64,000 bases of DNA from an uncultured Actinomycetota bacterium. GTDB lineage: Bacteria > Actinomycetota > Actinomycetes > Mycobacteriales > SCTD01. Below are positions 45,568-63,897 of this stretch, in pieces (positions within the stretch are counted from its first letter, which is position 1; every line of letters starts with the position of its first letter). The stretch lies in contig CAVXIB010000010.1 of the NCBI GenBank assembly GCA_963761695.1, positions 69,559-133,558 of the forward strand, given 5' to 3'. The notes beneath the pieces are model-generated. The model had not been told where the DNA came from and made no database searches. It worked only from the letters and a program-made list of their open reading frames with translations. A program made the position numbers and the translations under genes.

Positions 45568-46964
45568 CTAGGTCCCCGATCCGTCGGCCGCCGACCTCGG
45601 CGACGGCGAGGGCAGGGGCTGCGCCGTCCTCGCCGGCTCTGGGGCGGCTGCCGGGGCCGGCGCAACCGGTCCCGGCTCGGGAGCAGGCGTCGACACCGGG
45701 ACCGTGCGCACGGTGCCGGTCACGAGGAGGGCGGCGTCGCAGGGATCCCCCTCGGGGTTGCGGCACAGGACGGTGAACTGCAGCGTCGAGGCCGGGCCGA
45801 AGGCGACGGGTGCCGGCAGGGTGAAGACCTGGGTGTCGCCGAGCCGCGCCGTCAGCAGCGCCGCGCCGTCACGCAGGACCGTCATCTCGCCCCGGTCGCC
45901 GTTGGGCTGCAGGACGAAGCCCGCGATCGACAGCGACTCGTCGGGCGCCACCCGCAGGAACGGCCCGCTGTCGGCGCCCCGGACCTGCAGGCGTGAGGTG
46001 AACGGGCCGGCCCGACCGGCGTCACGGCGCGGGCCGGAGCCGCGGAAGGGGCTGCACCGGTCGGCGCCGCACCCCGTCGGGCCGTGGTGTCCTGCACCGT
46101 CCGGCGGGCCGCGTCGGCGTCGGCGGCGGCCTCCAGCGTCGTGTCGTCCAGCGGCGCGGGGCTCGCCTGCTCGCTGACCGCGGCGGCGTCCTCCCGAGCG
46201 GCGTCGCCCGCCGGGCTCAGCCGCGGCTGCACCAGCACCAGCAGCGCCAGCAGTCCGAGGCCCACCAGCAGCGCCCGACCGAGCAGTCTCGGCAGCGACT
46301 GCGGGAGCAGCGCCGTGGAGCTGAGCGTGCCGGGCAGCTCGATCGGCTCGGCCGAACCGGGCACCTGCACCAGGACGAGGAAGCCCCGGGTCAGGGGCGG
46401 TCCACGCCAGTAGGTGCCCTGGCCCCGGGCGAGCAGCGTGCCGAAGACCGCGCCCCCGGGCGGGCACTCCAGCTGCGACTGACCGACGGCCAGCACGAGG
46501 TCCTGGTCCGGGTCGTAGGCGTCCAGGGTCACCGTCAGCGGCGCGTTCCCCCGGTTGTCGATGGCCACGACGAAGCTGGCCCGGCGCCGGCTGCGGGCGG
46601 TGCGGCTGCGCGGGACGAGCTCGGCGTCGACGTCCACGAAGGGCAGGACCTCGAGCACGGCCTCCTCCACGCAGCCGCCCGACGGGTCCTCCCGGCAGGT
46701 GGCACGCAGCCCCAGCACCGACAGTCCGGTCGAGGTGGCGCTCGCCCGCGGCGGTGACACCACCAGGTCCACGTCGCGCTTGCGCCCCGGGAGCAGACGC
46801 ACCTCGGGCGGCTCGACCCGGGCCCACCCCTCGGGCAGGCCGACCACGTCCAGAGCGATCGCGTCGACCACGTTGCCGGTGTTGGTGACGACGGCCCGGA
46901 CCGTCAGCGTCTCGCCCGGGACGACCTCGAGGCTGGCGTCGGCGAGGACGACGGAGGCGCTCAT
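45568..46964 (-). pseudogene. Bitopic membrane protein with beta-sandwich-like domains on both sides of one TM; one frame disruption near 46000-46015 as sequenced
   Basis: The N-terminal part MSASVVLADASLEVVPGETLTVRAVVTNTGNVVDAIALDVVGLPEGW... has two NEW3/CARDB-like repeats. TM is LLGRALLVGLGLLALLVLV. The C-terminal part FTSRLQVRGADSGPFLRVAPDESLSIAGFVLQPNGDRGEMTVL... is in another frame with high GC3 and no nearby start. Length is 1397 nt. Confidence 0.55.
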
Positions 46965-47113
46965 GGCCCCAGCCTGGACCGGTCGCGGCCGGGTGTTGAG
47001 GTCGGGCGGGTGCCCGTTGGGGCAGACCCGGATGCCCGTTGTGCCGGTGTTGACCGTCGGGCGGTTCAGTGCCGCTGACCCGTTCGGGTCAGTGGTCGAA
47101 GGAGGTGGACCGG

Positions 47114-47764
47114 ATGTCCGTGCCCGTGCCGTCCGTGGTGGTCGAGCTCGTCCGGGTCGTGGTGCTCGCCGACGACCCCGTGTCACGCAGCGGCGTCGTC
47201 GCCGGGTTGCGCGAGGTGCGCACGCTGCACGTGGTCGACGACCGCGAGGCCGCGCGCGCCGACGTCGTCGTGTGCATCGCCGACGACCCGGTGCGCGCCG
47301 CGCTGCTGGTCCGGCAGGTCCTCGCGAGTGGCGCCCGCCGCGCGGTCGCCGTGGTCGGGGCGCTCGACGACGCCGCGCTGCTGACCCTCGTCGAGGCGGG
47401 CGCGTGCGGACTGCTGCGCCGCAGCGACGCGACCCCGGAGGCCCTTGCCCACGCCGTCCGCACAGCCGACGACGGCGACGGCACCCTCCCGCCGGACCTG
47501 CTCGGCCGCCTGCTCGAGCACGTGCAGCGGCTCGGCCGCGACGTGCTCGCACCGCGGGGGCTGACGTCGTCGGGCCTCACGTCGCGGGAGACGCAGGTGC
47601 TGCAGCTGCTCGCCGACGGCGAGGACACCCATGGCGTCGCCCGGCAGCTGGCCTACAGCGAGCGGACCGTGAAGTCGGTCGTCCACGACCTCACCAGCCG
47701 CCTGGGTGTGCGCAACCGGACGCAGGCGGTGGCGCATGCGCTGCGGCACGGCCTCATCTCGTGA
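47114..47764 (+). CDS. LuxR-family regulator (REC-like N-domain + LuxR HTH), first gene of the CIS locus
   Basis: ATG 47114 follows GAAGGAGG. C-terminal LTSRETQVLQLLADGEDTHGVARQLAYSERTVKSVVHDL. Confidence 0.8.
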   Translation: MSVPVPSVVVELVRVVVLADDPVSRSGVVAGLREVRTLHVVDDREAARADVVVCIADDPVRAALLVRQVLASGARRAVAVVGALDDAALLTLVEAGACGLLRRSDATPEALAHAVRTADDGDGTLPPDLLGRLLEHVQRLGRDVLAPRGLTSSGLTSRETQVLQLLADGEDTHGVARQLAYSERTVKSVVHDLTSRLGVRNRTQAVAHALRHGLIS

Positions 47765-48378
47765 TCGGGGCCGTCGACGAAGCGCTGCGGCGGGCCGTGC
47801 GGGAGGCGGTGCCGGACGGCGCCGTCGCTGTCAGTTTCGAGGCACCGACCAAGGACTGGGCCGCCCGCCGGAACGGACCGGCGGTGGACCTGTACCTGTA
47901 CGACGTGCACGAGGTCGTCGCCCGGCGCCACGCCGGACGGGTGCCGCTGCGTGAGGACGGCCGCGTGGTGGGTGTCCGGTCGCCGCAACGCTGGTACGCC
48001 CTGTCCTACCTGCTCACCTGCTGGACGTCGCGGCCGGAGGACGAGCACGCGCTCCTGTCGGCCTGCCTCGTCGGGCTCCTCCGCCACGAGTCGCTGCCGC
48101 CCGCGTGGCTGGACAGCGGTGGCGTCGCCCTGGACCAGGCCTGCCAGCTGCAGGTGGCGCAGCCGCCGCCGACCGACCGCAAGTCGCCCGACCTGTGGTC
48201 CGCGCTCGGCGGTGAGCTCAAGCCGTCCCTGCACCTCGAAGTCGTCGTCGCGCTGGACGCAGGTCGCACCACGGCGCTCGCCCTCCCGGTGACGCAGCCC
48301 CCCGTGCTGCAGACGGACTCCCGCACCCCTGGGATCGGTGGCAGCGAGAGCAGGTCGGGGCGTCAGCGGGTCGGCTGA
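47761..48378 (+). CDS. DUF4255 (Pvc16/Afp16 N-terminal type) protein, putative tail terminator/cap
   Basis: GTGA overlap with the LuxR gene. VSFEAPTKDW...AVDLYLYDVHE...WYALSYLLTCW is the usual DUF4255 pattern. Confidence 0.7.
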   Translation: MIGAVDEALRRAVREAVPDGAVAVSFEAPTKDWAARRNGPAVDLYLYDVHEVVARRHAGRVPLREDGRVVGVRSPQRWYALSYLLTCWTSRPEDEHALLSACLVGLLRHESLPPAWLDSGGVALDQACQLQVAQPPPTDRKSPDLWSALGGELKPSLHLEVVVALDAGRTTALALPVTQPPVLQTDSRTPGIGGSESRSGRQRVG

Positions 48379-52567: not shown

Positions 52568-52833
52568 GGCAGACCTCCCCCTCGTGTTGAGCTGCGAGCC
52601 TCCCACTGCCGAGCCCCTCCGGCTCCTGCCTCTTGGGGCGGTACGGGTGGCGCACCTCCGCGACGCCGTCGTCCAGCTGGGCCGGTCAACGGTGTCCTCG
52701 CTCGCCACCCCCAACGAGGCGCACTGCCCCGACGGGCAGGTCCGACCGCCCCTTCCGACGCACCGCCGGTCGTGCGCCCGGGCCGTCCCCCTCGACAGTC
52801 TGGGCGCACACCAGACATCCCGAGGGGGCCGCA

Positions 52834-54387
52834 ATGCCGCAGTACCTGTCGCCGGGCGTGTTCGTCGAGGAGCTGCCGCCCGCAGCCCGGCCGATCGAGG
52901 GCGTCAGCACCTCGGTCGCCGCCTTCGTGGGCCTGGCGGCCTCCGGACCGTTCGACACGCCCGTGCTCGTCACCAACTGGACCCAGTTCTGCAAGAGCTT
53001 CGGCGACTTCGTCGAGGGCAGCTACCTGGCGCACGCCGTCTACGGCTTCTTCACCAACGGCGGGTCCACCTGCTACGTGGTCCGCGTCGGGGCGGCGGCC
53101 GCGAAGGCCGAGCCCGCGGAGCTGCCGCCGGCCGCCGCCGAGCTCAACGGCACCGACAAGACGCCGGCCTACACGGTCCGAGCCCTGGCGGCGGGCGCCG
53201 AGGGCAGCACGCTCAGCGTCGACGTCAACCCGGCACCGGCGACCGAGGGCGGCGACGAGACCTACACCGTCGTCGTGCGTCGCGGCACCGAGGCCGTGGA
53301 GACCTTCGAGGGCCTCACGACCAAGCGCGGCAGGACCAACGTCGCGACCACGGTCAACGCCCAGTCCAAGCTGATCAAGATCGAAGAGGTCGCCAAGGCC
53401 GGGACGATCGAGAAGCTCGCTCCCGGCAGCACCGCCCTGGCGGCCCCCGCCTCGGCGCTGATCCCCGCGCAGGCTGCGGTCGGCCCGGACGACTACGTCG
53501 GCTCGGCCGCGAACCGCACCGGCTTCGGCGTCCTCGAGACGCTCGAGGACGTCACCATGGTCGCGGTCCCGGACCTGGTCGCCGCGCTGCAGCAGGGAGC
53601 CATCGACCTCGAGGGCTTCAAGGCCGTGCAGCTCGGGATCATCAACCACTGCGAGCTCATGGGCGACCGGATGGCCATCCTGGACCCGCCCCCCGGGCTC
53701 GGCGCGCAGCAGGTCAAGGACTGGCGGACCGACGTCGCCGGCTACGACAGCAAGTACGCGGCGCTCTACTGGCCGCAGGTCAAGGTCTTCGACCCGCTGT
53801 CCGGTCGCAACGTCTTCATCCCGCCGTCGGGCCACCTCGCGGGCATGTGGAGCCGCAGCGACGCCGAGCGCGGCGTGCACAAGGCTCCCGCCAACGAGGT
53901 GCTCCGCGGCGTCGTCGACGTCGAGGCGACCCTCACCCGCGGCGAGCACGACCAGCTCAACCCGATCGGCGTCAACGTCATCAAGTCCTTCCCGGGCCGC
54001 GGCATCCGCGTCTGGGGCGCCCGCACCCTGTCGAGCGACCCGGGCTGGCGCTACATCAACGTCCGTCGCCTGTTCTCCTTCGTCGAGGACTCGCTGCTGG
54101 GTTCCATGGACTGGGTCGTGTTCGAGCCGAACGACCGCGACCTGTGGGCCCGCATCTCGCGCGAGGTCAACGCGTTCCTCTACCGCCTCTGGCAGTCCGG
54201 CGCCCTGTTCGGGAACTCCCCGGACGAGGCGTACTACGTGCGCTGCAACGACGAGACGAACCCCTCCGAGAACATCGAGGCGGGTCTGGTGACCACCGAG
54301 ATCGGCCTGGCCGCGGTCAAGCCGGCCGAGTTCGTCGTCTTCCGCCTGGCCAGCCTGCCGACCGGCACGGCGTCGGTCTCCGAGTGA
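52834..54387 (+). CDS. Contractile tail sheath protein
   Basis: MPQYLSPGVFVEE...STSVAAFVG at the N-terminus and NPIGVNVIKSFPGRGIRVWGARTL in the C-terminal sheath domain. 517 aa. Confidence 0.95.
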   Translation: MPQYLSPGVFVEELPPAARPIEGVSTSVAAFVGLAASGPFDTPVLVTNWTQFCKSFGDFVEGSYLAHAVYGFFTNGGSTCYVVRVGAAAAKAEPAELPPAAAELNGTDKTPAYTVRALAAGAEGSTLSVDVNPAPATEGGDETYTVVVRRGTEAVETFEGLTTKRGRTNVATTVNAQSKLIKIEEVAKAGTIEKLAPGSTALAAPASALIPAQAAVGPDDYVGSAANRTGFGVLETLEDVTMVAVPDLVAALQQGAIDLEGFKAVQLGIINHCELMGDRMAILDPPPGLGAQQVKDWRTDVAGYDSKYAALYWPQVKVFDPLSGRNVFIPPSGHLAGMWSRSDAERGVHKAPANEVLRGVVDVEATLTRGEHDQLNPIGVNVIKSFPGRGIRVWGARTLSSDPGWRYINVRRLFSFVEDSLLGSMDWVVFEPNDRDLWARISREVNAFLYRLWQSGALFGNSPDEAYYVRCNDETNPSENIEAGLVTTEIGLAAVKPAEFVVFRLASLPTGTASVSE

Positions 54388-54415: not shown

Positions 54416-54895
54416 ATGACCACGCCCGCCGTCGGGATGAACCCGACCCAGAACGTCGCCGTCACCACCTGGTACCTCGACGCGAGCGGCACGTCGCTCG
54501 CGGCCTTCAAGACGATCTCCGGCATCAGCCTGGAGCTCAACGTCGTGGAGATGCAGCACACGATCAAGGGCGGCAAGACGTCCATCATGAAGTCGGTCAA
54601 CGCCGGCGGTGTGAAGCCCGGGAAGCTCACCTGCACCCGCGGCCTGATCCTCGACGACTCCATGTGGACCTGGATCCAGGACGCCATCGACGGCAACATG
54701 GCCAAGGCCCGCAAGAACATCACCATCATCCTGTACAACGCGGACGGCAGCGAGAGCAAGCGGTACGAGTTCCGCAACGCGTTCCCGTCCGGATGGTCGC
54801 TCGGTGACCTCGACGCGGCTGGCACCGACGCCCTCATGGAGACCCTCACGATCGAGCACGAGGGCTTCAGCCTCAAGGGCAAGAACGGCTTCTAG
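54416..54895 (+). CDS. Tail tube protein (T4 gp19 / Afp1-like)
   Basis: A 159-aa protein directly after the sheath gene. WYLDASG...FKTISGISLELNVVEM...YEFRNAFPSGWSLGDLDA is the tube-family pattern. Confidence 0.9.
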   Translation: MTTPAVGMNPTQNVAVTTWYLDASGTSLAAFKTISGISLELNVVEMQHTIKGGKTSIMKSVNAGGVKPGKLTCTRGLILDDSMWTWIQDAIDGNMAKARKNITIILYNADGSESKRYEFRNAFPSGWSLGDLDAAGTDALMETLTIEHEGFSLKGKNGF

Positions 54896-54901
54896 GCCAC
54901 C

Positions 54902-55360
54902 GTGGAGCGGACCGTGCGAGGACCGTCGGCGCTGCTGCCGCCGCGGCCCCCCGAGCACAGCGACCAGCAGCCGCACGGTCCGCAGGAGGGCCTCAGCACG
55001 GAGTTCTCGTTCGTGCTGCCCCGGGGGTACGTCGACGAGGACGGCCGGGTGCACCGCGAGGGCGTCATGCGCCTCGCGACCGCACGCGATGAGATCGCCC
55101 CGCTCCGCGATCCCCGGGTGCAGCAGAACGAGGCGTACCTGACCGTGCTGCTGCTCGCCCGCGTGGTCGAGCGGCTGGGCAGCCTCGACGTCGTCGATCC
55201 CCGGGTGGTCGAGGGCCTGTTCGCCGTCGACCTCGCTTTCCTGCAGGACCTGTACCGGCGGGTCAACCAGGAGGGCCACACGCAGGCCCTCGTCACCTGC
55301 CCGTCCTGCGAGCACGAGTTCACGGTGGACGTGGCGGGGAGCGGCCAGGGGGGGTCCTGA
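54902..55360 (+). CDS. CIS/phage tail assembly protein (chaperone-position gene) with C-terminal CxxC
   Basis: EFSFVLPRGYVDEDGRVHREGVMRLATARDEIAPLRDPRVQQNEAYLTVLLLARVV...VTCPSCEHEF. It sits between the tube and the tape-measure-position gene. Confidence 0.65.
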   Translation: MERTVRGPSALLPPRPPEHSDQQPHGPQEGLSTEFSFVLPRGYVDEDGRVHREGVMRLATARDEIAPLRDPRVQQNEAYLTVLLLARVVERLGSLDVVDPRVVEGLFAVDLAFLQDLYRRVNQEGHTQALVTCPSCEHEFTVDVAGSGQGGS

Positions 55361-55527
55361 CGTACGCGGCCGACCGCCTGCTCGAGGAGGTCGCGTACGT
55401 CGCCTACCACTTCCACTGGCCTCTGGCGGACATCCTCGACCTCGAGCACCCGCTGCGTCAGCAGTTCATCCAGCACATCGGTCGACTGAACGGCGCCGCG
55501 GGAGGTGAGCAGGGGTGGGACGGCTGA
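55357..55527 (+). CDS. DUF6760-like small protein in the -1 frame, no canonical start codon (CTG start or -1 frameshift extension of 54902-55360)
   Basis: The translation LTYAADRLLEEVAYVAYHFHWPLADILDLEHPLRQQFIQHIGRLNG... matches the small conserved CIS protein that normally begins MTY... There is no ATG/GTG/TTG in this frame in the 24 codons upstream. The GGGGGGG run at 55348-55354 is in X_XXY_YYZ phase. Confidence 0.5.
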   Translation: MTYAADRLLEEVAYVAYHFHWPLADILDLEHPLRQQFIQHIGRLNGAAGGEQGWDG

Positions 55528-58500
55528 GGGACGCCCTGCGTGGTCGTTCGACGTCGGTGCTGCTCGCCGGCGCGGGGTCACAGGCAGCGCTCCCGTCCGT
55601 GCCGGGCGAGGCCGGGAGCGCCGTCCCGCCGGCGGTCCTGACGACCGCCGCTCCGCGCGCACGGCAGGCCTCGGTGCGCGCGGCCTGGCGCGACGCCGCA
55701 CCCCTCGTCCCCCTGCTCGCGCAGCCCCTGGCCTGGGAGGCGGGCGCCGGGTTCACGCGCTCGCTCGCCACCGCGCCGCACCCTGCCGCGTGCTCTGGCC
55801 CCGCTCGGCCACGAGCTGCGCCAGGATGCCCCGCGCGGTCTGCTCGTCGGCGTCGCGAGGTCGCACGCGCCGGGCCTGGTCCCCGACGCGCTGCCCCTGC
55901 CGCGTCAGCGTGCAGGCCTCGACGGCGACACTGCACCCCGCGACACCGCATTCGGCGACACCGCATTCGGCGACACCGTGCCGACCAGCGTCGCGCCGCC
56001 CGCACCTGCCCGCACCGGCGACCGGCTGCTGCGCCGGGTCCGGCAGCGGCGGGCGACGCCGTCACCGACCGACGTCGTGCCTGCCGCCCCCGGCCGGGAC
56101 GAGCGGGCGCCCGTCGCCGCACCGGAGAGCCGCGCCGTCGCGCCTGCAGCAGCAGCCCTCGACGCACCCGCGGGCGAGGCGGTGCCGGCGCTGCCGCAGC
56201 CGTGGGCTGCCCGTCGCCTGTCCCTCACCCGTTCCACTGCCGGTGCTACTGCCGGTGCCGCTGCCACTGCTATGGCCGGTGCTACTGCCGCTGCCGCTGC
56301 CGCTGCCGCTGCCGGTGCCACTGCCGGTGCCGGTGCCGGTGCCGGTGCCGGACCGACGGTGCCCGTCGGCCGCGTGACGCTGCCGACGGCCCGCCGCCTG
56401 CCCAGCGTCGCGGCCGAGCTGCCCCGGGTCGGCGGGCCGGCCGACGTGGCGGGACCGCGCCGCGCGAGCGGACCCGCGAGCCCGCTCGGCCCGGGCCTAC
56501 CTCTCCCGGTCGCACCGCTGCTGCCCTCACCGGAAGGGACCCCCGCCGACAGCCGCACGGCCCCGGCCGAGGCGACCACGGCGCCACCGCAGCCGGCCCC
56601 GGCAGCCGGCCCGACGGCGCCACCCGTGGAGCGCGGGGCGCCGCCGCGCGCAGGTCGTGGTCCCGAGTCTGCGACCCCCGCCGTCCCGTCGCCCCTTCCT
56701 CCTGCCGTCGAGACCCCTCGTCGACCGGGTCCGGGGCGCAGTCGGCTGGGGGCACCCCTGCGCGGAGCGACGCCGCCGTCACCTGCACCTGCGACTGCGG
56801 CTGCGGCTGCCTGCTCCTGCCCCTGACGCCGACGCCTACGGCGACGGCAGACCCGCAGACCGCCGCCACGAATGGCCCCTCGACGGTGGCGCACCAGGTC
56901 CCCACCCGGACACCAGCTGCCCCCGACCCGGCCACGCTGCCGCAGCGCCCTCCGGGCGAGGGACCTCCCCCCGCCGAGGCGGTACCGGTTCCGTCCGGCA
57001 CGCATCCGCCGCCGACGCCGACGCCGACGTCCTCCAGCAGCATCTCGCCGGTCGAGCGGTCCCCGCTCGCACCGGCCCGCGGCGTCTCCGGACCCGTCAC
57101 TGCCGACGAGGCACACCCCACGTCACTGATGACAGCACCGCCGGTCGAGCCCGGGCACGAGGGGCTGCTGCCGCTGGCTGCGTCGACCCCCCTGACGCCT
57201 GCTGGCCTCACCGTCCCGCACGAGGTCGGGCCGCCCTCCGCGGACGGGCTGGTCGACCTGCCGCCGGCCCGCGGCGCACGTGCGGGCTCGCCGGAGGCCC
57301 TCCCGGGAGGGCCTGGCGCGTCGGGAACATCCGTCCCGTCCTCGCTCCCCGGAGCGGGCCCGACCGCCATGCCGGTCGGCCCGGCCGTCGGCCTGCCGCC
57401 GTCCGCCTCGGCACGTCCCACCCCTGGAGGTGCCGACCCTGCAGGTCCTGCCGCCACCCGTCCCGACCCTGCAGGTCCCGTCCTGCCCCTCACGGGAGCC
57501 GGCCCGACCGCACCGGCCGCTCCGCCGTTGTCGACGCCCGTCCCGCAGCTGCCCGTCGGCGAGGGGGATCCGCCGCCGGCCGCCGCCGGCCCGCTGACCC
57601 AGCGGGCGGCCACCCCCCCAGCGCAGCCTGACGAGCCTGGACCCCGACCGCTGTCGCCGACGTCCCCCGCCGCCCTGCCGCTGACGTCCGCCACGCCGCT
57701 GACCGTGACCGACCTGACCTCCCGTCGTCTGTCCGGCCCCGCGTCCGTCCCGGCCGGGCCCCCGTCCGCGCTCCTCCCGAGCCCCGCGCTCCTCCCGAGC
57801 CCCGCGGTCCTCCCGAGCCCCGCGGTCACCCGCGCGCCCCATGCCCCCGTGCCCGATTCCTCCGTGCCCCCGCCCGCCCCGCTGTCCGGCGACGGCGGCG
57901 CGCGCCCGACCACGATCCCCGACCTCACCCGTGCCTCGAGCACCGGCCCGTCGGCCCCGACCTTCGACCGGCATGAGGCCGGGTCCGGGCCGAAGGACCG
58001 TTCCGGCGTGCCCGCGCAGCAGCCGCTCGAGCAGTCGCTCGTGACGCGGCGCCCCGCCCCGGCAGCCCCGGCCTCCCCGGTGACGCGCCCGTCGACCACC
58101 CCCGACGCCGGGCCTCCCGCGCCCCCCGCCGGCGCCCCCGAGCCGGTCTCCGCGGACGGGGCCACCGAGCCGCCCGCCACCGCGCGGCCCCTGGTGGGGG
58201 CCGAGCGCACGTCCACCCTGCCCTCGGACATGGACGCGGGCCACCCTGTTCCCGGGGCCGGTCCCGCGGCACTCGTCCCGGCCGACCTGGTGCCCCTCGT
58301 GCTTCGCCGACCCGGCCAGCAGGGCGACCAGCCCCCGGCACCGGGGCCGCTGCCCGCCGACGCCGGGGGCATCTCACGCGGAGCAGCCGACCGGCCGATG
58401 GCCGCCCCAGGCACGCCGCCCGTTCGCACGCCCGTGACCGCTCCTGCCGCGTCCGCGACGCCGGTGGCGCCGTCCGTCCAGCCGGGGCCGGTGAGCATGC

Positions 58501-60158
58501 CGAGCCTGCTGCCGACCGTCGGCGTGACACCCGCCTCGGTCCTGCGGCCACCGACCGACGTCCCGCCGGCAGCACCGGCCCAGCCCGGGAGTCGGCCGGT
58601 CGGCCAGCTGCCGTCCTCGCGCGCTGCGGTCAGTGCCGCCCTGCCGCACGCGCCGCAGCCGCCCCTGACCGACCGCGCCGCCGCACGCGAACCGGACTCC
58701 CGACCGCAGGCCCCACCGCCGCAGCCCGCCCGCGCCCTCGACGACGTCGCGCCCGGCGAGCCCGCCACGAGCCGACGGGCGACGGCACTCCCCTCGCCGG
58801 TCGACGGTGTCCGCCCGCTCGTCGGCACCCGTGAGGTAGCAGCACCACGGAGCGGCGAAGAGGTGGTCCCGTCGGACCGCAGCGCCGCGACGACGTCGGC
58901 CCAGCCCCTCCCGGGAGCAGCCGCGGCGCCGGGCGCCCACCACGACCTGGCGGGAGCCACCGACGCTCCCCGACCGGCAGCCGCCCGACCCTCGGCGCCT
59001 GCCCTGCAGGCTCCCGGCGCCCGCAACGACAACGACAACGGCACGTCTGCGGTCGCCGCACCGACTGCGCGTCCACTCGCCGGGCGGCCCCGGACGCGCC
59101 TCGGCGCACCCCTCACCGAGGCCGGCGCGCGCCCGTCGCCCTCGTCCGACCCTGCCCACCCCCGGACCCTCCTGCCGCCGACCGGCCAGGGAGCGCTCCC
59201 TGCAGACGCCGACCAGGCGGCCCGCCCGGTGTCGACCGTCCCGAACCGGGACGACGCCGTCCGGTCCCCCACCGCCCTGCAGCCCGCCCGGGCAGGAGTG
59301 CCCTACGAGGTGCGCCCCTCCAGCCTGGCAGGGCCCACGCAGGACCCTGGCTCCGGGCCGGCCGCCGAGCAGCGGGCCGTCGAGCGGGCGGTCCAGACGG
59401 TGGAGCGGCGCACCGGCCGGCCGCTGCCCCCGGTGCTGCTGGACCGGAGCACGGCGAGCGCTGCGGCCCTGCGCCCGGCGTCCGCCCTCGCCGCCGCCAC
59501 CGGTCAGCGGGTCGTGCTCCCCCTCGCGGCCGGCCCGCTCACCGGTCCACGCGCCGCCGGGCTGCTCGCCCACGAGCTCACGCACCTCGCGCAGCAGGCG
59601 GCCGGGCGCCTGGAGGCGACCCCGGAACAGGACGAGCAGCAGGCCCGGTCGGCCGAGGCTGCCGCCGGGGGTCGGCCGGCGACTCGCGTGCTCACCGCCA
59701 CCCGTCCGGCGGCGGACCGCAGCCCTGCGCCTACTCCTGCCCTGCCGCACCAGCAGGGACGTGAGACGGAGCACGAGGGCGGTGACGCCGGATCACCGGT
59801 GCGCCGCGCCGCGGCCGTCGCTGCCCAGCTGGAGCGGGCGACGCGCGCACCGGCACCAGCCGCAACCCGTGCACCAGCACCCGCACCAGCACCCGCACCA
59901 GCACCCGCACCCGCACCTGCACCCGCACCCGCACCCGCGGCCGCGCCCGTGCAGCTCGCCGAGTCCGACACCTCCCGGCGACCGGCCGCGCCGTCCTCAC
60001 CGGCACCAGCCGCGCCGGTCGACCCCCTGGCCGCCCTCACTCCCGCCTCCCTCGACCACCTCGCGGCCCGCCTCTACGGACGACTGCGCAGCCAGCTCCG
60101 CAGCGAGCTGCTCGCCGACCGCGACCGCACCTCCGACCTCGCCGACCTGTGGACCTGA
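55515..60158 (+). CDS. Giant Pro/Ala-rich protein with internal DUF4157 (HExxH) domain in the tape-measure position; middle ~1 kb reads better in another frame
   Basis: GTG 55515 follows GGAGG. The DUF4157-like core is ...VERRTGRPLPPVLLDRS...GQRVVLPL...LLAHELTHLAQQ. The conserved-looking C-terminus is LDHLAARLYGRLRSQLRSELLADRDRTSDLADLW. Between about 55780 and 56810, frame +1 has higher GC3 and natural sequence. Confidence 0.65.
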   Translation: MGRLRDALRGRSTSVLLAGAGSQAALPSVPGEAGSAVPPAVLTTAAPRARQASVRAAWRDAAPLVPLLAQPLAWEAGAGFTRSLATAPHPAACSGPARPRAAPGCPARSARRRREVARAGPGPRRAAPAASACRPRRRHCTPRHRIRRHRIRRHRADQRRAARTCPHRRPAAAPGPAAAGDAVTDRRRACRPRPGRAGARRRTGEPRRRACSSSPRRTRGRGGAGAAAAVGCPSPVPHPFHCRCYCRCRCHCYGRCYCRCRCRCRCRCHCRCRCRCRCRTDGARRPRDAADGPPPAQRRGRAAPGRRAGRRGGTAPRERTREPARPGPTSPGRTAAALTGRDPRRQPHGPGRGDHGATAAGPGSRPDGATRGARGAAARRSWSRVCDPRRPVAPSSCRRDPSSTGSGAQSAGGTPARSDAAVTCTCDCGCGCLLLPLTPTPTATADPQTAATNGPSTVAHQVPTRTPAAPDPATLPQRPPGEGPPPAEAVPVPSGTHPPPTPTPTSSSSISPVERSPLAPARGVSGPVTADEAHPTSLMTAPPVEPGHEGLLPLAASTPLTPAGLTVPHEVGPPSADGLVDLPPARGARAGSPEALPGGPGASGTSVPSSLPGAGPTAMPVGPAVGLPPSASARPTPGGADPAGPAATRPDPAGPVLPLTGAGPTAPAAPPLSTPVPQLPVGEGDPPPAAAGPLTQRAATPPAQPDEPGPRPLSPTSPAALPLTSATPLTVTDLTSRRLSGPASVPAGPPSALLPSPALLPSPAVLPSPAVTRAPHAPVPDSSVPPPAPLSGDGGARPTTIPDLTRASSTGPSAPTFDRHEAGSGPKDRSGVPAQQPLEQSLVTRRPAPAAPASPVTRPSTTPDAGPPAPPAGAPEPVSADGATEPPATARPLVGAERTSTLPSDMDAGHPVPGAGPAALVPADLVPLVLRRPGQQGDQPPAPGPLPADAGGISRGAADRPMAAPGTPPVRTPVTAPAASATPVAPSVQPGPVSMPSLLPTVGVTPASVLRPPTDVPPAAPAQPGSRPVGQLPSSRAAVSAALPHAPQPPLTDRAAAREPDSRPQAPPPQPARALDDVAPGEPATSRRATALPSPVDGVRPLVGTREVAAPRSGEEVVPSDRSAATTSAQPLPGAAAAPGAHHDLAGATDAPRPAAARPSAPALQAPGARNDNDNGTSAVAAPTARPLAGRPRTRLGAPLTEAGARPSPSSDPAHPRTLLPPTGQGALPADADQAARPVSTVPNRDDAVRSPTALQPARAGVPYEVRPSSLAGPTQDPGSGPAAEQRAVERAVQTVERRTGRPLPPVLLDRSTASAAALRPASALAAATGQRVVLPLAAGPLTGPRAAGLLAHELTHLAQQAAGRLEATPEQDEQQARSAEAAAGGRPATRVLTATRPAADRSPAPTPALPHQQGRETEHEGGDAGSPVRRAAAVAAQLERATRAPAPAATRAPAPAPAPAPAPAPAPAPAPAPAAAPVQLAESDTSRRPAAPSSPAPAAPVDPLAALTPASLDHLAARLYGRLRSQLRSELLADRDRTSDLADLWT

Positions 60159-60159
60159 C

Positions 60160-60708
60160 ATGACGATGCCCCAGCAGCGCCCCGCTCCCCCGCCCCCGCC
60201 GCGCCCCACGCTGCCCGCGCCCAAGCCCTTCGGCCGCTACACCAGCGTCCCGCGCCCGACGTCGAGCGACGCGGCCCCGCGGCACATGACGGGCTTCTGG
60301 GTGGTCGTCGACGGCGTCTCCCTGCCGACCTTCACCGAGTGCACCGGCCTGGCCGCCGAGTACGGGGTCGAGCCATGGACCGAGGGCGGCCAGAACGAGT
60401 TCATCCACCAGCTCCCGGGACGGATCTCCTACACACCGGTGAGCCTCACCCGCTACGTCGACGGTGCGAGCGGCGGGCTGGCCGCCTGGTTCAGCAGCGT
60501 CGCCGACATCAGCCAGAAGTACCGCACGGCGCGCATCAGCGCCGTCGACGCCGCCGGCGACCCGGTCGCGCACTGGGACCTCACCGACGTCTTCCCGTCG
60601 AAGTACACCGGGCCCAGCTTCACCGTCGGCGGGACGACCGCCGCCTCCGAGACGCTCGACCTCGTCCACCACGGGTTCGTCTTCGCCTACGACGCGCCGA
60701 GGGGCTGA
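60160..60708 (+). CDS. Second tail tube family protein (gp19/Afp5-like) with Pro-rich N-terminal extension
   Basis: FWVVVDGVSLPTFTECTGLAAEYGVEPWTEGGQNEFIHQLPGRISYTPVSLTRY...HWDLTDVFPSKYTGPSF. An alternative start is the internal ATG before TGFWVVV. Confidence 0.85.
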   Translation: MTMPQQRPAPPPPPRPTLPAPKPFGRYTSVPRPTSSDAAPRHMTGFWVVVDGVSLPTFTECTGLAAEYGVEPWTEGGQNEFIHQLPGRISYTPVSLTRYVDGASGGLAAWFSSVADISQKYRTARISAVDAAGDPVAHWDLTDVFPSKYTGPSFTVGGTTAASETLDLVHHGFVFAYDAPRG

Positions 60709-60709
60709 G

Positions 60710-61384
60710 ATGGCCGCGATCGCCAAGCTCACCCTGCGCCCGAAGACCGGGGGTGGCGCCGCGCTCGAGCTGCCCTACAACCCGGAGTCGCTGACCTTCT
60801 CGGCCAGCGCGACGTTCAACGACGTCCCCGCCGGAGCCGACGTCGCCGGCGTGCAGTTCATGGAGCGCCAGGCCCGGTCGACGTCGGTGACCGCACGTCT
60901 CGACGCCCGGGCCCTGACGCGCAGCGTCGCCGACACGGTGCAGCAGGTGTTCGACTGGCTGGAGCCGACGGAGGAGTCGGTGAAGCGCAACGCGCCGTCG
61001 CCGCCGCTGCTGGACCTGAGCTGGGGCAAGCACTGGTTCGACGTCGTGCTCGAGTCGGCGAGCGCGGAGTTCACCTTGTTCTCCGCCGACGGCGCCCCCA
61101 CCCGCGCGACGGTGATGATGACGCTCAAGGAGGTGCCGCTCAAGGAGAAGCGGCAGAACCCGACGTCGGGGAGCCTCGTGGGCCGCCGCTCGCACCAGGT
61201 GGTCTCGGGCGACAGCCTGCACTCGATCGCCACGGCCGAGTACGGCGACCCGCGGCACTGGCGCGACCTCGCCCTGGCGAACCGCCTGGACGACCCGCTG
61301 GCCCTGCGGCCGGGTACCCGGGTGCTGCTCCCGGACCTCGCCGAGCTGCCCTCCTCGCTGATCCGGACGGTGTCCCCGTGGTGA
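60710..61384 (+). CDS. Tube-initiator-like protein with C-terminal LysM domain (Afp7/Pvc7-like)
   Basis: N-terminal tube-like fold (LELPYNPESLTFSASA...). C-terminal LysM (HQVVSGDSLHSIATAEYGDPRHWRDLALANRLDDPLALRPGTRVLLP). Confidence 0.8.
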   Translation: MAAIAKLTLRPKTGGGAALELPYNPESLTFSASATFNDVPAGADVAGVQFMERQARSTSVTARLDARALTRSVADTVQQVFDWLEPTEESVKRNAPSPPLLDLSWGKHWFDVVLESASAEFTLFSADGAPTRATVMMTLKEVPLKEKRQNPTSGSLVGRRSHQVVSGDSLHSIATAEYGDPRHWRDLALANRLDDPLALRPGTRVLLPDLAELPSSLIRTVSPW

Positions 61385-63090
61385 CCACGGCCGGAACCGA
61401 GCTGGGCCACGAGCCGGTCGTCAAGGTCCTGGGATCGCCGCTGCGCGAGGAGGTCGCGAGCGCCGTCGAGCGGATCGTCGTCGACCTCGCCGTCGGGCTC
61501 CCGGCCAGCGCCACGGTCCACCTGCGCGACCCGGATCTGCGCGCCCTCGGCAACGCCGGGCTCCAGGTCGGGAGCCCCGTGCAGATCGCCCTGAACAGCC
61601 TGGGCGACCCCCGGCACGTCACGCTGTTCGACGGCGAGGTGACGGCTCTGGAGTACGAGTACGACGCCCGGGGCTCGCTGGTGGTCGCGCGCTGCCACGA
61701 CAAGCTCCACCGCCTCACCCGCGGCCGGCGCACCCGCTCGTGGACGCAGACCGACGACGCGAGCGTGGCCCGCGCGGTCCTGTCCGGCGCCGGGCTGCCG
61801 ATCGGGACCGTGGAGGGAGCGACGCTGCGCCACGACCACGTCGCCCAGCTGGACGTGAGCGACTTCGACTTCCTGTCGGCGCGGGCGCGCGAGACGGGCC
61901 GCGTCCTGGTGATGGACGACGGCAAGGCGCACGTCCGGGTCCGCCCGACGACGGCCGGCGGCACACCGGTGGAGCTCGAGGTCGGGCGCGAGCTCGAGCG
62001 CCTGCGGGTGCGGGTGACGAGCGCGGGGCAGGTCAAGGCCGTCACGGTCGACGGCTGGGACCCCGCGACCCAGAAGGCCGTCTCAGGACAGGCGCCGCTG
62101 CAGGGGACGGCCGCGAAGGCGGGGGTCAAGCACGCCTCCCTGGCATCCCGGTTCGGCCCCGCGCCGGCCCACGTCGGCAGCCCCGTGCTGCGGACGGCCG
62201 CGGAGGCGAAGGCGCACGCCGACGGGCTCGCCGTCCGGCTGTCGGACGTGCACGCCGAGGTCGAGGGCGAGTGCGGCGGCGACCCGCGCCTTGTGCCCGG
62301 CGGCGCCGTGAAGATCGTGGGTACGGGCCCGGCCCACGACGGCACCTACGTGCTCAGCCGGGTGCAGCACGTCTCCGACCGGGACGGCTACCGGACGCGG
62401 ATCGAGTGCGCCGGCGGCGAGGACCGCAGCCTGCGCGGGCTGCTGGGGAGCGGACGCCCCGGCGCGCCGACCGGCAGCGGCAACCGTCCCGTACCGGGCG
62501 TGACGGTCGGCGTCGTGACCGACCTGAAGGACCCGACGAGGAAGGGCCGGGTCAAGGTGAAGTTCCCGTGGCTGTCCGGTGAGTACGCCACCGACTGGGC
62601 CCGGGTCGCCGCGCCGGGTGCCGGCAAGGACCGGGGTCTGGCCTGGCTGCCCGAGGTCAACGACGAGGTGCTCGTGGCGTTCGACCACGGCGACACGCGC
62701 ACGCCCTACGTCGTCGGCGGGCTGTGGAGCGCGCGGTCGGCCCCTCCGCTCGCCGCGACCCTCGTCGACGGGACCGGCGCGACGGCCGTCCGGGCGCTGC
62801 GAAGCCGGACCGGGCAGCGCCTGGTGCTGTCGGACGAGACCGGTCGCAGCGGCGCCCTGCTGTCGTCGGGCGACGACAAGATGGTGGTCAGGCTCGACGG
62901 CAGCCAGACCACGGTCACCATCGACAGCAAGGGCAAGGTCGTCGTGTCCGGGAGCCAGGACGTCTCCGTGACCTCGATGTCGCGGCTGCTGCTCGAAGGC
63001 AAGGCGGGCGTCGAGATCAAGGGCGCCACGGTCAAGGTCGACGCGCAGGGGCCGGTGACCGTCAAGGGCGCCGTCATCCAGCTCAACTGA
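61378..63090 (+). CDS. VgrG-like baseplate hub/spike (gpD + gp5 OB-fold + beta-helix)
   Basis: The gpD-like N-terminal half is followed by an OB-fold (GVTVGVVTDLKDPTRKGRVKVKFPWLS...WARVAAPGAGKDRGLAWLPEVNDEVLVAFDHGDTRTPYVVGGLW) and a C-terminal beta-strand repeat region. Confidence 0.9.
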   Translation: MVTTAGTELGHEPVVKVLGSPLREEVASAVERIVVDLAVGLPASATVHLRDPDLRALGNAGLQVGSPVQIALNSLGDPRHVTLFDGEVTALEYEYDARGSLVVARCHDKLHRLTRGRRTRSWTQTDDASVARAVLSGAGLPIGTVEGATLRHDHVAQLDVSDFDFLSARARETGRVLVMDDGKAHVRVRPTTAGGTPVELEVGRELERLRVRVTSAGQVKAVTVDGWDPATQKAVSGQAPLQGTAAKAGVKHASLASRFGPAPAHVGSPVLRTAAEAKAHADGLAVRLSDVHAEVEGECGGDPRLVPGGAVKIVGTGPAHDGTYVLSRVQHVSDRDGYRTRIECAGGEDRSLRGLLGSGRPGAPTGSGNRPVPGVTVGVVTDLKDPTRKGRVKVKFPWLSGEYATDWARVAAPGAGKDRGLAWLPEVNDEVLVAFDHGDTRTPYVVGGLWSARSAPPLAATLVDGTGATAVRALRSRTGQRLVLSDETGRSGALLSSGDDKMVVRLDGSQTTVTIDSKGKVVVSGSQDVSVTSMSRLLLEGKAGVEIKGATVKVDAQGPVTVKGAVIQLN

Positions 63091-63103: not shown

Positions 63104-63487
63104 GTGGGAACACCTGCCGCCGTCATGGGCGACCGCATCACCGGCATCTGCCCGAACCACCTCATCCCAGGACCGCTGGGGGTGCCGGTCCCGGCCGGCC
63201 CGCTCCCGTTCTCGGCACCGGTCGTCGTCGGTGTCGTGCCGACCGTCCTCATCACCGGCAAGGCGGCGGTCACCGCGACCTGCTCGGGCCTGAACACCCC
63301 GCCGCACGTCGGCCTGCACCCGAGCGACCCGTTCCTCGGCCCGCCCGTGCAGATCGGACGCGTGCTGGTGGGCAGCCCCACGGTGCTCGCGGGCGGGAAG
63401 CCGCTGGCCCGCCTCGGGTCGAGCGTCACCTGCTGCGTCGCACCGGGCGTGCTCGCGGCGTCGGCGTCCACGGTGCTGGTCGCGTGA
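63104..63487 (+). CDS. PAAR-like spike-tip protein
   Basis: A 127-aa protein immediately after the spike gene. AAVMGDRITGIC...VLITGKAAV...VLVGSPTVLAGGKPLARLGSSVTCC is PAAR-like. Confidence 0.75.
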   Translation: MGTPAAVMGDRITGICPNHLIPGPLGVPVPAGPLPFSAPVVVGVVPTVLITGKAAVTATCSGLNTPPHVGLHPSDPFLGPPVQIGRVLVGSPTVLAGGKPLARLGSSVTCCVAPGVLAASASTVLVA

Positions 63488-63897
63488 GCACGCCGCAGAA
63501 CGGCTCGCCCTTCACCGGCCGGGGCTGGGCGTTCCCGCTGCGCACGACGGCGAGCGGCGGCATCGCGCTGGTCGACGGCGACACCGAGATCGCCGAGGCG
63601 ATCCGCCTGGTGCTCGGCACCGCCAAGGGCGAGCGGCCGATGCGACCGGAGTTCGGCTGCGGCATCCACGACCTCGTCTTCGCCCCGACCGACCCCGCCC
63701 TGCTCGGTCAGATCGAGGCCGAGGTGCGGGCCTCGCTGCGCCGCTGGGAACCGCGGATCCTCGTCACCGAGGTGGCCGCCAGCCCGGACGGCGACGACAG
63801 CGGAACCGTCTGGATCACCGTCCGCTACCTGGTGCTCGACACCGACGACCCCCGCAACCTGGTCTTCCCCTTCTACTCACTGCCTCCGGAGGAGTGA
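63484..63897 (+). CDS. GPW/gp25 baseplate wedge protein
   Basis: GRGWAFPL...IALVDGDTEIAEAIRLVLGTAKGERPMRPEFGCGIHDLVF is the canonical gp25 core. Start overlaps the PAAR gene stop by 4 nt (GTGA). Confidence 0.9.
   Translation: MSTPQNGSPFTGRGWAFPLRTTASGGIALVDGDTEIAEAIRLVLGTAKGERPMRPEFGCGIHDLVFAPTDPALLGQIEAEVRASLRRWEPRILVTEVAASPDGDDSGTVWITVRYLVLDTDDPRNLVFPFYSLPPEE

Follow-up and report, generated by a model that had tools for sequence, protein, structure and literature searches.

A 64,000-nucleotide stretch of DNA from an uncultured Actinomycetota bacterium (hereafter the window) contains a contractile injection system gene cluster, in which a gene for a chaperone-like protein of 152 amino acids (aa) is followed, in the −1 reading frame, by a short open reading frame (ORF) of the DUF6760 family that has no canonical start codon. 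We consider it likely, from sequence comparison, that the junction between the two carries a signal for programmed −1 ribosomal frameshifting of the lambda G/GT type. We favor this reading because a slippery site in the correct phase, a short spacer and a hairpin are conserved beyond the needs of either protein, and because many related loci lack a start codon for DUF6760; the match to lambda G/GT follows from the combination of this frameshift signature with chaperone homology and gene position. A frameshift fusing the chaperone to DUF6760 had been proposed in a preliminary description of the same DNA, and the comparison now lends that proposal support through the frame relation, the heptamer, the hairpin, the start-less loci and a match of the upstream protein to phrog_508.

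The end of the chaperone gene in the window

As the preliminary description had reported, the zero-frame gene ends in CAG (55346) GGG GGG TCC TGA. The run consists of exactly seven G, begins at the third base of the CAG codon, lies 4 nucleotides (nt) before the stop codon and, read as G_GGG_GGG, satisfies the X_XXY_YYZ form of a slippery heptamer (Table 1). A chance origin of such a run is unlikely, because the whole window (GC content 75.6%) contains only 4 homopolymers of at least 7 bases, because this one has the right phase and because the same in-phase run recurs in relatives. A database homologue of the chaperone begins at GTG 54914.

Translated from 55354 to its stop codon, the −1 frame reads VLTYAADRLLEEVAYVAYHFHWPLADILDLEHPLRQQFIQHIGRLNGAAGGEQGWDG and starts with VLTYAADRLLEEVAYVAYHFHW. 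The peptide matches Pfam DUF6760 over residues 4-47 (score 31.7 bits, cut-off 27, E = 1.6e-7), which bears out the earlier recognition of a DUF6760-like ORF. The −1 frame is open from 55093 to 55524 (144 codons) and holds no ATG, GTG or TTG, so that the absence of these codons, described previously for 24 codons upstream, extends to the entire open frame; of the possible starts only CTG codons occur. The CTG at 55357 occupies the position of the GTG or ATG of relatives, and its overlap with the zero-frame stop codon is CTGA (55357-55360), the GTGA or ATGA overlap of coupled genes being absent in the window.

One explanation for the CTG at this position is that DUF6760 in the lineage of the window is an untranslated remnant, decaying after loss of a GTG start. 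However, nothing interrupts the ORF, its score still exceeds the Pfam threshold, and start-less loci in Streptomyces, Kitasatospora, Amycolatopsis, Planosporangium and Krasilnikovia retain the domain. Moreover, comparison of the window with a relative of 93% identity (L001/L004) revealed three substitutions in the DUF6760 frame, all synonymous, and one in-frame 3-nt indel, a pattern which argues that the frame is translated. We therefore give almost no weight to the remnant explanation.

Conservation of the frame relation and the heptamer

The comparison covered about 160 related loci from Actinomycetota, Chloroflexota, Cyanobacteria, Bacillota and Proteobacteria. Set 1 comprised 80 loci from species-representative genomes, plus the window (Actinomycetota, Chloroflexota, Dormibacterota and others), with isolates that include Streptomyces, Kitasatospora, Amycolatopsis, Micromonospora, Krasilnikovia and Planosporangium. 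Set 2 comprised distant or low-GC relatives (39-72% GC) from a protein search of plasmid records, together with 80 metagenome loci found with those chaperones as the query; plasmid records with the gene pair came from Nostoc, Brasilonema, Paenibacillus, Paraburkholderia, Ralstonia, Rhizobium and Deinococcus. Locus counts in both sets ignore phylogeny.

The chaperone gene and DUF6760 are adjacent in every set-1 locus, and DUF6760 lies in the −1 frame directly 3′ of the chaperone gene in all 84 loci counted for set 1 except three error-prone long-read bins (L002, L003 and L038); the same relation holds in all evaluable set-2 loci but one. The exceptions L002 and L003 point to indel errors, as neighboring genes in these bins are fragmented. 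We set aside two other kinds of recoding, a +1 or −2 shift on the grounds that the frame relation is always −1, and stop-codon readthrough on the grounds that the two ORFs are in different frames.

In set 1 the nucleotide sequence of the junction is itself conserved, reading CGC CTG GGG GAA TCG TGA in the zero frame and CCT GGG GGA ATC GTG ACG TAC (P G G I V T Y) in the −1 frame. The preliminary description had suggested comparing orthologues for a slippery heptamer as opposed to an ATG start. Of 80 set-1 loci, 79 have an in-phase G-rich heptamer, and the single locus without it, L020, has a GTG start of its own; an in-phase run of at least five G occurs in 80 of 81 evaluable set-2 loci. The overall count for the heptamer is 158 of 160 evaluable loci. 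ATG stands at the start position in 4 of 79 set-1 loci. The set-1 heptamers are GGGGGAA (61 loci), GGGGGGA (10), GGGGGGG (7) and GGGAAAA (1), and those of set 2 are GGGGGAA (33), GGGGGGG (22), GGGGGAG (12), GGGGGGA (12) and GGGGGGT (1).

Codon choice at the junction is far from the background of the same genes. The glycine codon of the set-1 heptamer is GGG in 78 of 79 loci (26% in the background) and the glutamate codon is GAA in 61 of 61 (13% in the background). The first base of the heptamer is G in 157 of 158 loci (79 of 79 in set 1), despite being the third base of a variable codon; the codons that end in this G (CTG, CCG, TCG, CAG, GCG and ATG, for example) encode L, P, S, A, Q, M, V, T or E. 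In set 2, the zero-frame stop codon moves (to −8, −5, +7, +16 or +28 nt relative to a conserved tyrosine codon) while the G run stays in place. The possibility that the run merely reflects high GC content was rejected, since it persists in genomes of 39-45% GC.

Individual loci deviate in the G run itself. L010, a Dormibacterota bin, reads CTG GGA AAA GCG TGA (approximately 2880-2895), a canonical G_GGA_AAA; it is the sole set-1 locus that has a heptamer with a broken G run, and its downstream hairpin is weak (−6.4 kcal/mol). In the metagenome contigs L140 and L154 the run is degraded (CGGGGCA and GAGGGAA, respectively) and a start codon is lacking, and both may be defective copies; in L140, a T_TTC sequence just 5′ might substitute for the G run.

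The prevalence of in-phase runs also bears on the possibility that the G7 of the window is a homopolymer error in the assembly, the true run being G8, which would produce a plain in-frame fusion, or some other length. The closest relatives of the window are long-read metagenome bins, and L002, L003 and L038 show frame errors or fragmented neighboring genes at this locus, which would speak for such an error. Nevertheless, an independent bin with 93% protein identity (L004) has the identical G7 and CTG, an in-phase G7 is found in 7 of 79 set-1 and 22 of 81 set-2 loci, including short-read assemblies of the Illumina type, and G8 is found in none. In addition, the −1 relation is independent of the type of run (G5AA, G6A or G7). 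Thus, a miscounted run, which the preliminary description had named as an alternative, appears extremely improbable.

Transcriptional slippage is another conceivable route to the fusion: RNA polymerase would add one G in a fraction of mRNAs, and normal translation of these would yield a product identical to that of a ribosomal frameshift. The G7 homopolymer of the window would suit such a mechanism. However, the run in most relatives is no longer than G5 before an AA or AG, whereas known transcriptional slippage usually requires about 7-9 A or T (reviewed in PMC5009743). A conserved phase of the run and a nearby downstream hairpin are features of slippage by the ribosome and not by the polymerase. 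We regard the transcriptional route as very unlikely.

A hairpin conserved through replacement of its sequence

The 13-base-pair (bp) stem downstream of the heptamer in the window has a minimum free energy of −30.7 kcal/mol (z = −2.9) and begins 4 nt after the heptamer. Across 79 set-1 loci, 89% of the cells in the stem alignment are paired, 7 of the 13 pairs have changed on both sides, and none of 500 shuffles was as good; individual loci average −26 kcal/mol, with a mean z of −3.55. In L022 and L037, compensatory changes in the stem alter the encoded amino acids. Different hairpins occupy the same place in L029, L033 and L069.

Set 2 has a stem in another register, GGCTACC paired with GGTAGCC, which lies 5-6 nt after the heptamer and shows covariation (GC to CG in 12 sequences and CG to UA in 4). 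When alignment A2 (columns 30-42/60-72) was compared with alignment A4 (columns 34-40/63-69), the region of the tyrosine codon was found to pair with CGCGTACGT in the actinobacterial type and with GGTAGCC in the other type. Because the same region has different pairing partners in the two sets, we conclude that the hairpin was kept while its sequence was replaced. The set-1 locus L069 uses a hairpin of the set-2 type.

Start codons of DUF6760 and translational coupling

The preliminary description stated that the expected start codon is replaced by CTG in the window, which is correct, and that relatives normally start with ATG (MTY), which is not. The codon before T-Y in 79 set-1 loci is GTG in 53, ATG in 4, CTG in 17 and GCG, GAG, GCC or GTA in 5, so that a canonical start is missing in 22 of 79 (28%). 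The CTG of the window is thus a lineage variant and not the general state. In 12 of the 22 start-less loci the −1 frame has a stop codon just 6 codons upstream, and consequently the change of frame must fall within the approximately 20 nt that hold the G run. Start codons are scarcer still in set 2, where 53 of 81 loci (65%) carry none of ATG, GTG and TTG from the G run to the conserved tyrosine, and in 25 of 83 the whole open −1 frame is free of these codons. Eight loci lack a near-cognate codon as well, and three of these (L102, L137 and L138) have only six open codons.

Nine set-1 loci with CTG in place of the start (L030, L032, L035, L037, L043, L048, L057, L060 and L064, from Streptomyces, Kitasatospora, Amycolatopsis, Planosporangium, Krasilnikovia and others) share the motifs L-W-E-E and Y-Y-L-H-W within DUF6760, and all but L043 have the −1 TGA six codons upstream. 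It seems that the start-less state of this group was inherited within a lineage and did not arise by scattered mutations. In public records, RefSeq starts the DUF6760 protein of Nostoc sp. UHCC 0926 plasmid pn3 (L084, 1860-2030) at ATA, there being no canonical start, and the record of Brasilonema plasmid pBOCT2 (L086) leaves DUF6760 unannotated. The family is systematically mis-annotated or missed.

These counts allow us to weigh an explanation without any frameshift, in which DUF6760 is a separate, translationally coupled gene: the G run would serve as its Shine-Dalgarno sequence, the codon at the overlap with the stop would be its start, the hairpin would block this start until opened by a ribosome arriving at the stop codon, and ribosomes in the window would initiate or re-initiate at CUG 55357. 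Several observations are consistent with coupling. RefSeq annotates a separate 'DUF6760 family protein', and GGGGG is able to pair with the anti-Shine-Dalgarno sequence. Among set-1 loci the first base of the start position is G in 53 and C in 17, despite TCG and TCC being equally common in the background, so that a start codon, or valine, may to some extent be under selection here. Finally, L020 (a Dormibacterota bin, 2860-2925) has no G-rich heptamer but has its own GTG, a GTGA overlap and a ten-codon N-terminal extension, and therefore demonstrates that an independent DUF6760 gene is possible.

Coupling nevertheless leaves much of the conservation unexplained. It does not accommodate the many loci of both sets that lack a canonical start, least of all those without a near-cognate codon, and loci with a TAG stop have GAG, GCC or GCG at the start position. 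A better Shine-Dalgarno sequence would contain GAG, and yet GAA is invariant among the set-1 loci with a glutamate codon. Nor would a ribosome-binding site need a G run whose phase is fixed while the stop codon moves and which is conserved at 40-45% GC, or a conserved −1 peptide (GG and a hydrophobic residue) ahead of the presumed start. Initiation at a rare CTG, raised in the preliminary description, is possible for the window itself, but the idea fails for relatives that lack a near-cognate codon. We conclude that coupling as the sole explanation is unlikely, and that it probably operates beside the frameshift in many actinobacterial loci; a GTG or ATG overlapping the stop codon may also yield free DUF6760 in most actinobacterial relatives.

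Considerations that weigh against a frameshift

Several points tell against the frameshift interpretation or weaken its parts. The first concerns the signal. The commonest heptamer, G_GGG_GAA, and likewise G_GGG_GAG, is not of strict X_XXY_YYZ form; on G_GGG_GAR the A-site Glu-tRNA would have to re-pair on GGA with a G.U pair at the middle position. To our knowledge, G-rich heptamers are not among the best-characterized efficient bacterial sites. Strict X_XXY_YYZ heptamers were found in 8 of 22 start-less set-1 loci and in 10 of 57 others, a difference that is not significant (Fisher p = 0.13, phylogeny being ignored). The 4-nt spacer of the window is also shorter than the usual 5-9 nt. Furthermore, a GTG or ATG overlaps the stop codon (GTGA or ATGA) in 57 of 79 set-1 loci, and in these loci part of the conservation could have a conventional explanation.

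A second point concerns database proteins in which chaperone and DUF6760 are already fused (P0004-P0009, P0017, P0021, P0032 and P0058), which we rejected as evidence. The fusion proteins that were traced or recognized correspond to L002, L003 and L038, all long-read assemblies, and in L002 and L003 the sheath and tube genes are fragmented. Because the frame switch differs in place between proteins and the neighboring genes are fragmented, these fusions look like indel artefacts.

A third point is the identity of the upstream protein, whose assignment as a chaperone comes from a single PHROG match (E approximately 1e-6 to 1e-8), Pfam and NCBIfam having given none. A PDB profile search with the chaperone returned only noise (E approximately 0.7), a tblastn search of the 152-aa protein against 50,697 phage records found no match, and an AlphaFold model from a 14-sequence chaperone alignment was unusable (pLDDT, the predicted local distance difference test, 49.6).

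Proposed mechanism

That slippage occurs at this site is something we infer from the sequence features and their conservation. In the proposed mechanism, most ribosomes would stop at TGA 55358-55360 and release a protein of about 150 aa, while a fraction would slip back by one base with Gly-tRNAs on GGG GGG (55348-55354), probably aided by the 13-bp hairpin 4 nt downstream. Slipped ribosomes would read 57 more codons in the −1 frame and produce a fusion with DUF6760 of about 207 aa. Its junction would read ...VDVAGSGQGG-VLTYAADR..., the same product being expected under both slippage models for the window, and the predicted junction peptide is ...EFTVDVAGSGQGGVLTYAADR. On the G_GGG_GAA consensus the two models differ, ...LGGIVTY... 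being predicted for a single P-site slip and ...LGEIVTY... for a tandem slip. Because the usual GTG is CTG in the lineage of the window, DUF6760 is probably made there mainly or exclusively as part of the fusion. By analogy with lambda gpG and gpGT, the chaperone part would bind the large tape-measure-like protein and DUF6760 would recruit tube subunits.

The injection system cluster and the identity of the putative chaperone

The 152-aa protein matches phrog_508 'tail assembly chaperone' (E = 1.7e-6), as do 14 of 14 aligned homologues (best E = 2e-8). It has approximately 8000 homologues, and its relatives are labeled 'phage tail assembly protein' in RefSeq. A search of NCBIfam with three proteins returned no family. 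Brasilonema plasmid pBOCT2 (L086) carries tandem copies of the chaperone gene (1106-1453 and 1483-1863), with the G run and DUF6760 only after the second.

The chaperone and DUF6760 ORFs are located between a tube gene and the gene in the tape-measure position (Table 1). The 1547-aa product of the latter may be the tape measure, as its position and the tape-measure-related DUF4157 effectors described in the same position (PMC11126660) suggest, and it is the likely client of the chaperone; PMC10066040 reported that a typical tape measure is absent. The GTG start of the 1547-aa ORF lies within the end of DUF6760, the overlap being 13 nt. In this ORF the eCIS_core domain is near the C-terminus, whereas the domain is given as N-terminal for S. 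davawensis Tme (PMC11126660). Given the 76% GC of the sequence, this ORF could represent more than one gene.

Table 1. Positions of the junction elements and of the surrounding injection system genes in the window.
Feature	Position	Strand	Remarks
Chaperone-like zero-frame gene	54902-55360	+	152 aa; GTG start; C-terminus SGQGGS*
Slippery heptamer G_GGG_GGG	55348-55354	+	X_XXY_YYZ phase
Spacer, heptamer to stem	55355-55358	+	4 nt
Zero-frame stop codon TGA	55358-55360	+	
Stem-loop, candidate frameshift stimulator	55359-55401	+	arms 55359-55371 / 55389-55401; 13 bp
−1 frame DUF6760 segment	55354-55527	+	57 codons plus stop codon 55525-55527; PF20546
Pvc16-type cap	46555-48378		
Contractile sheath gene	52633-54387	+	Pfam Phage_sheath_1 E = 2.8e-24, Phage_sheath_1C E = 2.8e-13
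Tube gene, T4 gp19-like	54416-54895	+	Pfam Phage_T4_gp19 E = 1.2e-28; directly 5′ of the chaperone gene
Large gene in tape-measure position	55515-60158	+	1547 aa; Pfam eCIS_core (DUF4157) E = 5.9e-8, residues 1293-1364
Second tube gene	after the 1547-aa gene		
Tube and LysM protein	60464-61384		
Spike	61378-63090		
PAAR	63104-63487		
gp25	63484-63897		

Implications and comparison with known systems

Taken more broadly, we lean toward the view that an ancient recoding signal shared by several phyla, consisting of a G-rich heptamer (mostly G_GGG_GAR) and a hairpin that has swapped pairing partners, lies in the chaperone gene of a large class of injection systems. DUF6760 would be the counterpart of the lambda T domain, and a phage-like pathway of chaperone and fusion protein would assemble the tube around a large DUF4157 or tape-measure-like 'effector', with some lineages also using the site as ribosome-binding site and start for free DUF6760. 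If this is true, the uncharacterized DUF6760 family gains a function and a mode of expression, and the tail-chaperone frameshift of tailed phages extends to bacterial contractile injection systems. The chaperone would be linked to the large tape-measure-like DUF4157 'effectors', which provides a testable model for their loading and for the start of tube assembly, and a family of G-rich −1 heptamers, found in genomes from 40% to 75% GC, would join the few bacterial frameshift sites outside mobile elements. For annotation, the results carry the warning that approximately 28-65% of DUF6760 genes have no start codon.

The junction resembles several known arrangements in part. Like ATGA/GTGA coupled gene pairs, 57 of 79 set-1 loci have this overlap before T-Y; unlike such pairs, the window and 74 further loci have no start there, and both the phase of the G run and the choice of codons are constrained beyond the needs of a ribosome-binding site. 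E. coli dnaX is a bacterial gene with a −1 shift at A_AAA_AAG, stimulated by a downstream stem-loop and an upstream Shine-Dalgarno-like element, which truncates the protein. The present junction would resemble it as a −1 frameshift in a cellular bacterial gene, where a stable hairpin lies shortly after the heptamer. It differs in that dnaX has an A-rich heptamer and the upstream Shine-Dalgarno-like element, and in that the dnaX shift leads to truncation, whereas here a domain would be added.

The chaperone pairs of phage P2 (E and E+E′) and of R-type pyocins are the contractile-tail versions of the phage system, in which a −1 shift between tube and tape measure produces a C-terminal extension. 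They share with our locus the contractile tail, the gene position and the predicted −1 extension at the C-terminus; the P2 site is T-rich, and the site in the window is G-rich.

The lambda gpG/gpGT frameshift of the tail assembly chaperone is the arrangement that the junction matches (Levin et al. 1993; Xu, Hendrix and Duda 2004, 2013, 2014; summarized in PMC5009743). In both cases the gene lies between the tube (major tail) gene and the gene in the tape-measure position, the downstream ORF is short and often startless, and the heptamer begins with G_GG; G_GGA_AAG of lambda and G_GGA_AAA of L010 are one base apart. In contrast to lambda, the element here is a bacterial contractile injection system rather than a phage, G predominates in the heptamer (G_GGG_GAR or G_GGG_GGN) and a conserved hairpin is present. 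The lambda frameshift is not known to need a hairpin. The extension here is also only about 57 aa, many actinobacterial loci have in addition a start codon overlapping the stop codon, and neither lambda G nor T has detectable sequence similarity to the present proteins. Among phages in general, phrog_508 is the only link of the window chaperone.

In cluster type and gene order, the closest described systems are those of S. davawensis (Tme; PMC11126660) and S. coelicolor (PMC10066040), the shared order being cap, sheath, tube, small genes, large DUF4157/eCIS_core protein, tube initiator, spike, PAAR and gp25, and Streptomyces loci of set 1 have the same junction as the window. A term search of these two papers found no occurrence of 'frameshift' in either, and 'chaperone' only in one reference-list title of PMC11126660 and nowhere in PMC10066040. 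Our full-text literature search found no paper that mentions DUF6760 and none that links a contractile injection system chaperone to frameshifting, and the GeneTack survey reported only a cluster of HK97-like phage chaperones. The tail-chaperone frameshift is known from tailed phages, and what appears to be new here, judging by the conserved junction, is its likely presence in injection systems and its use of G-rich heptamers.

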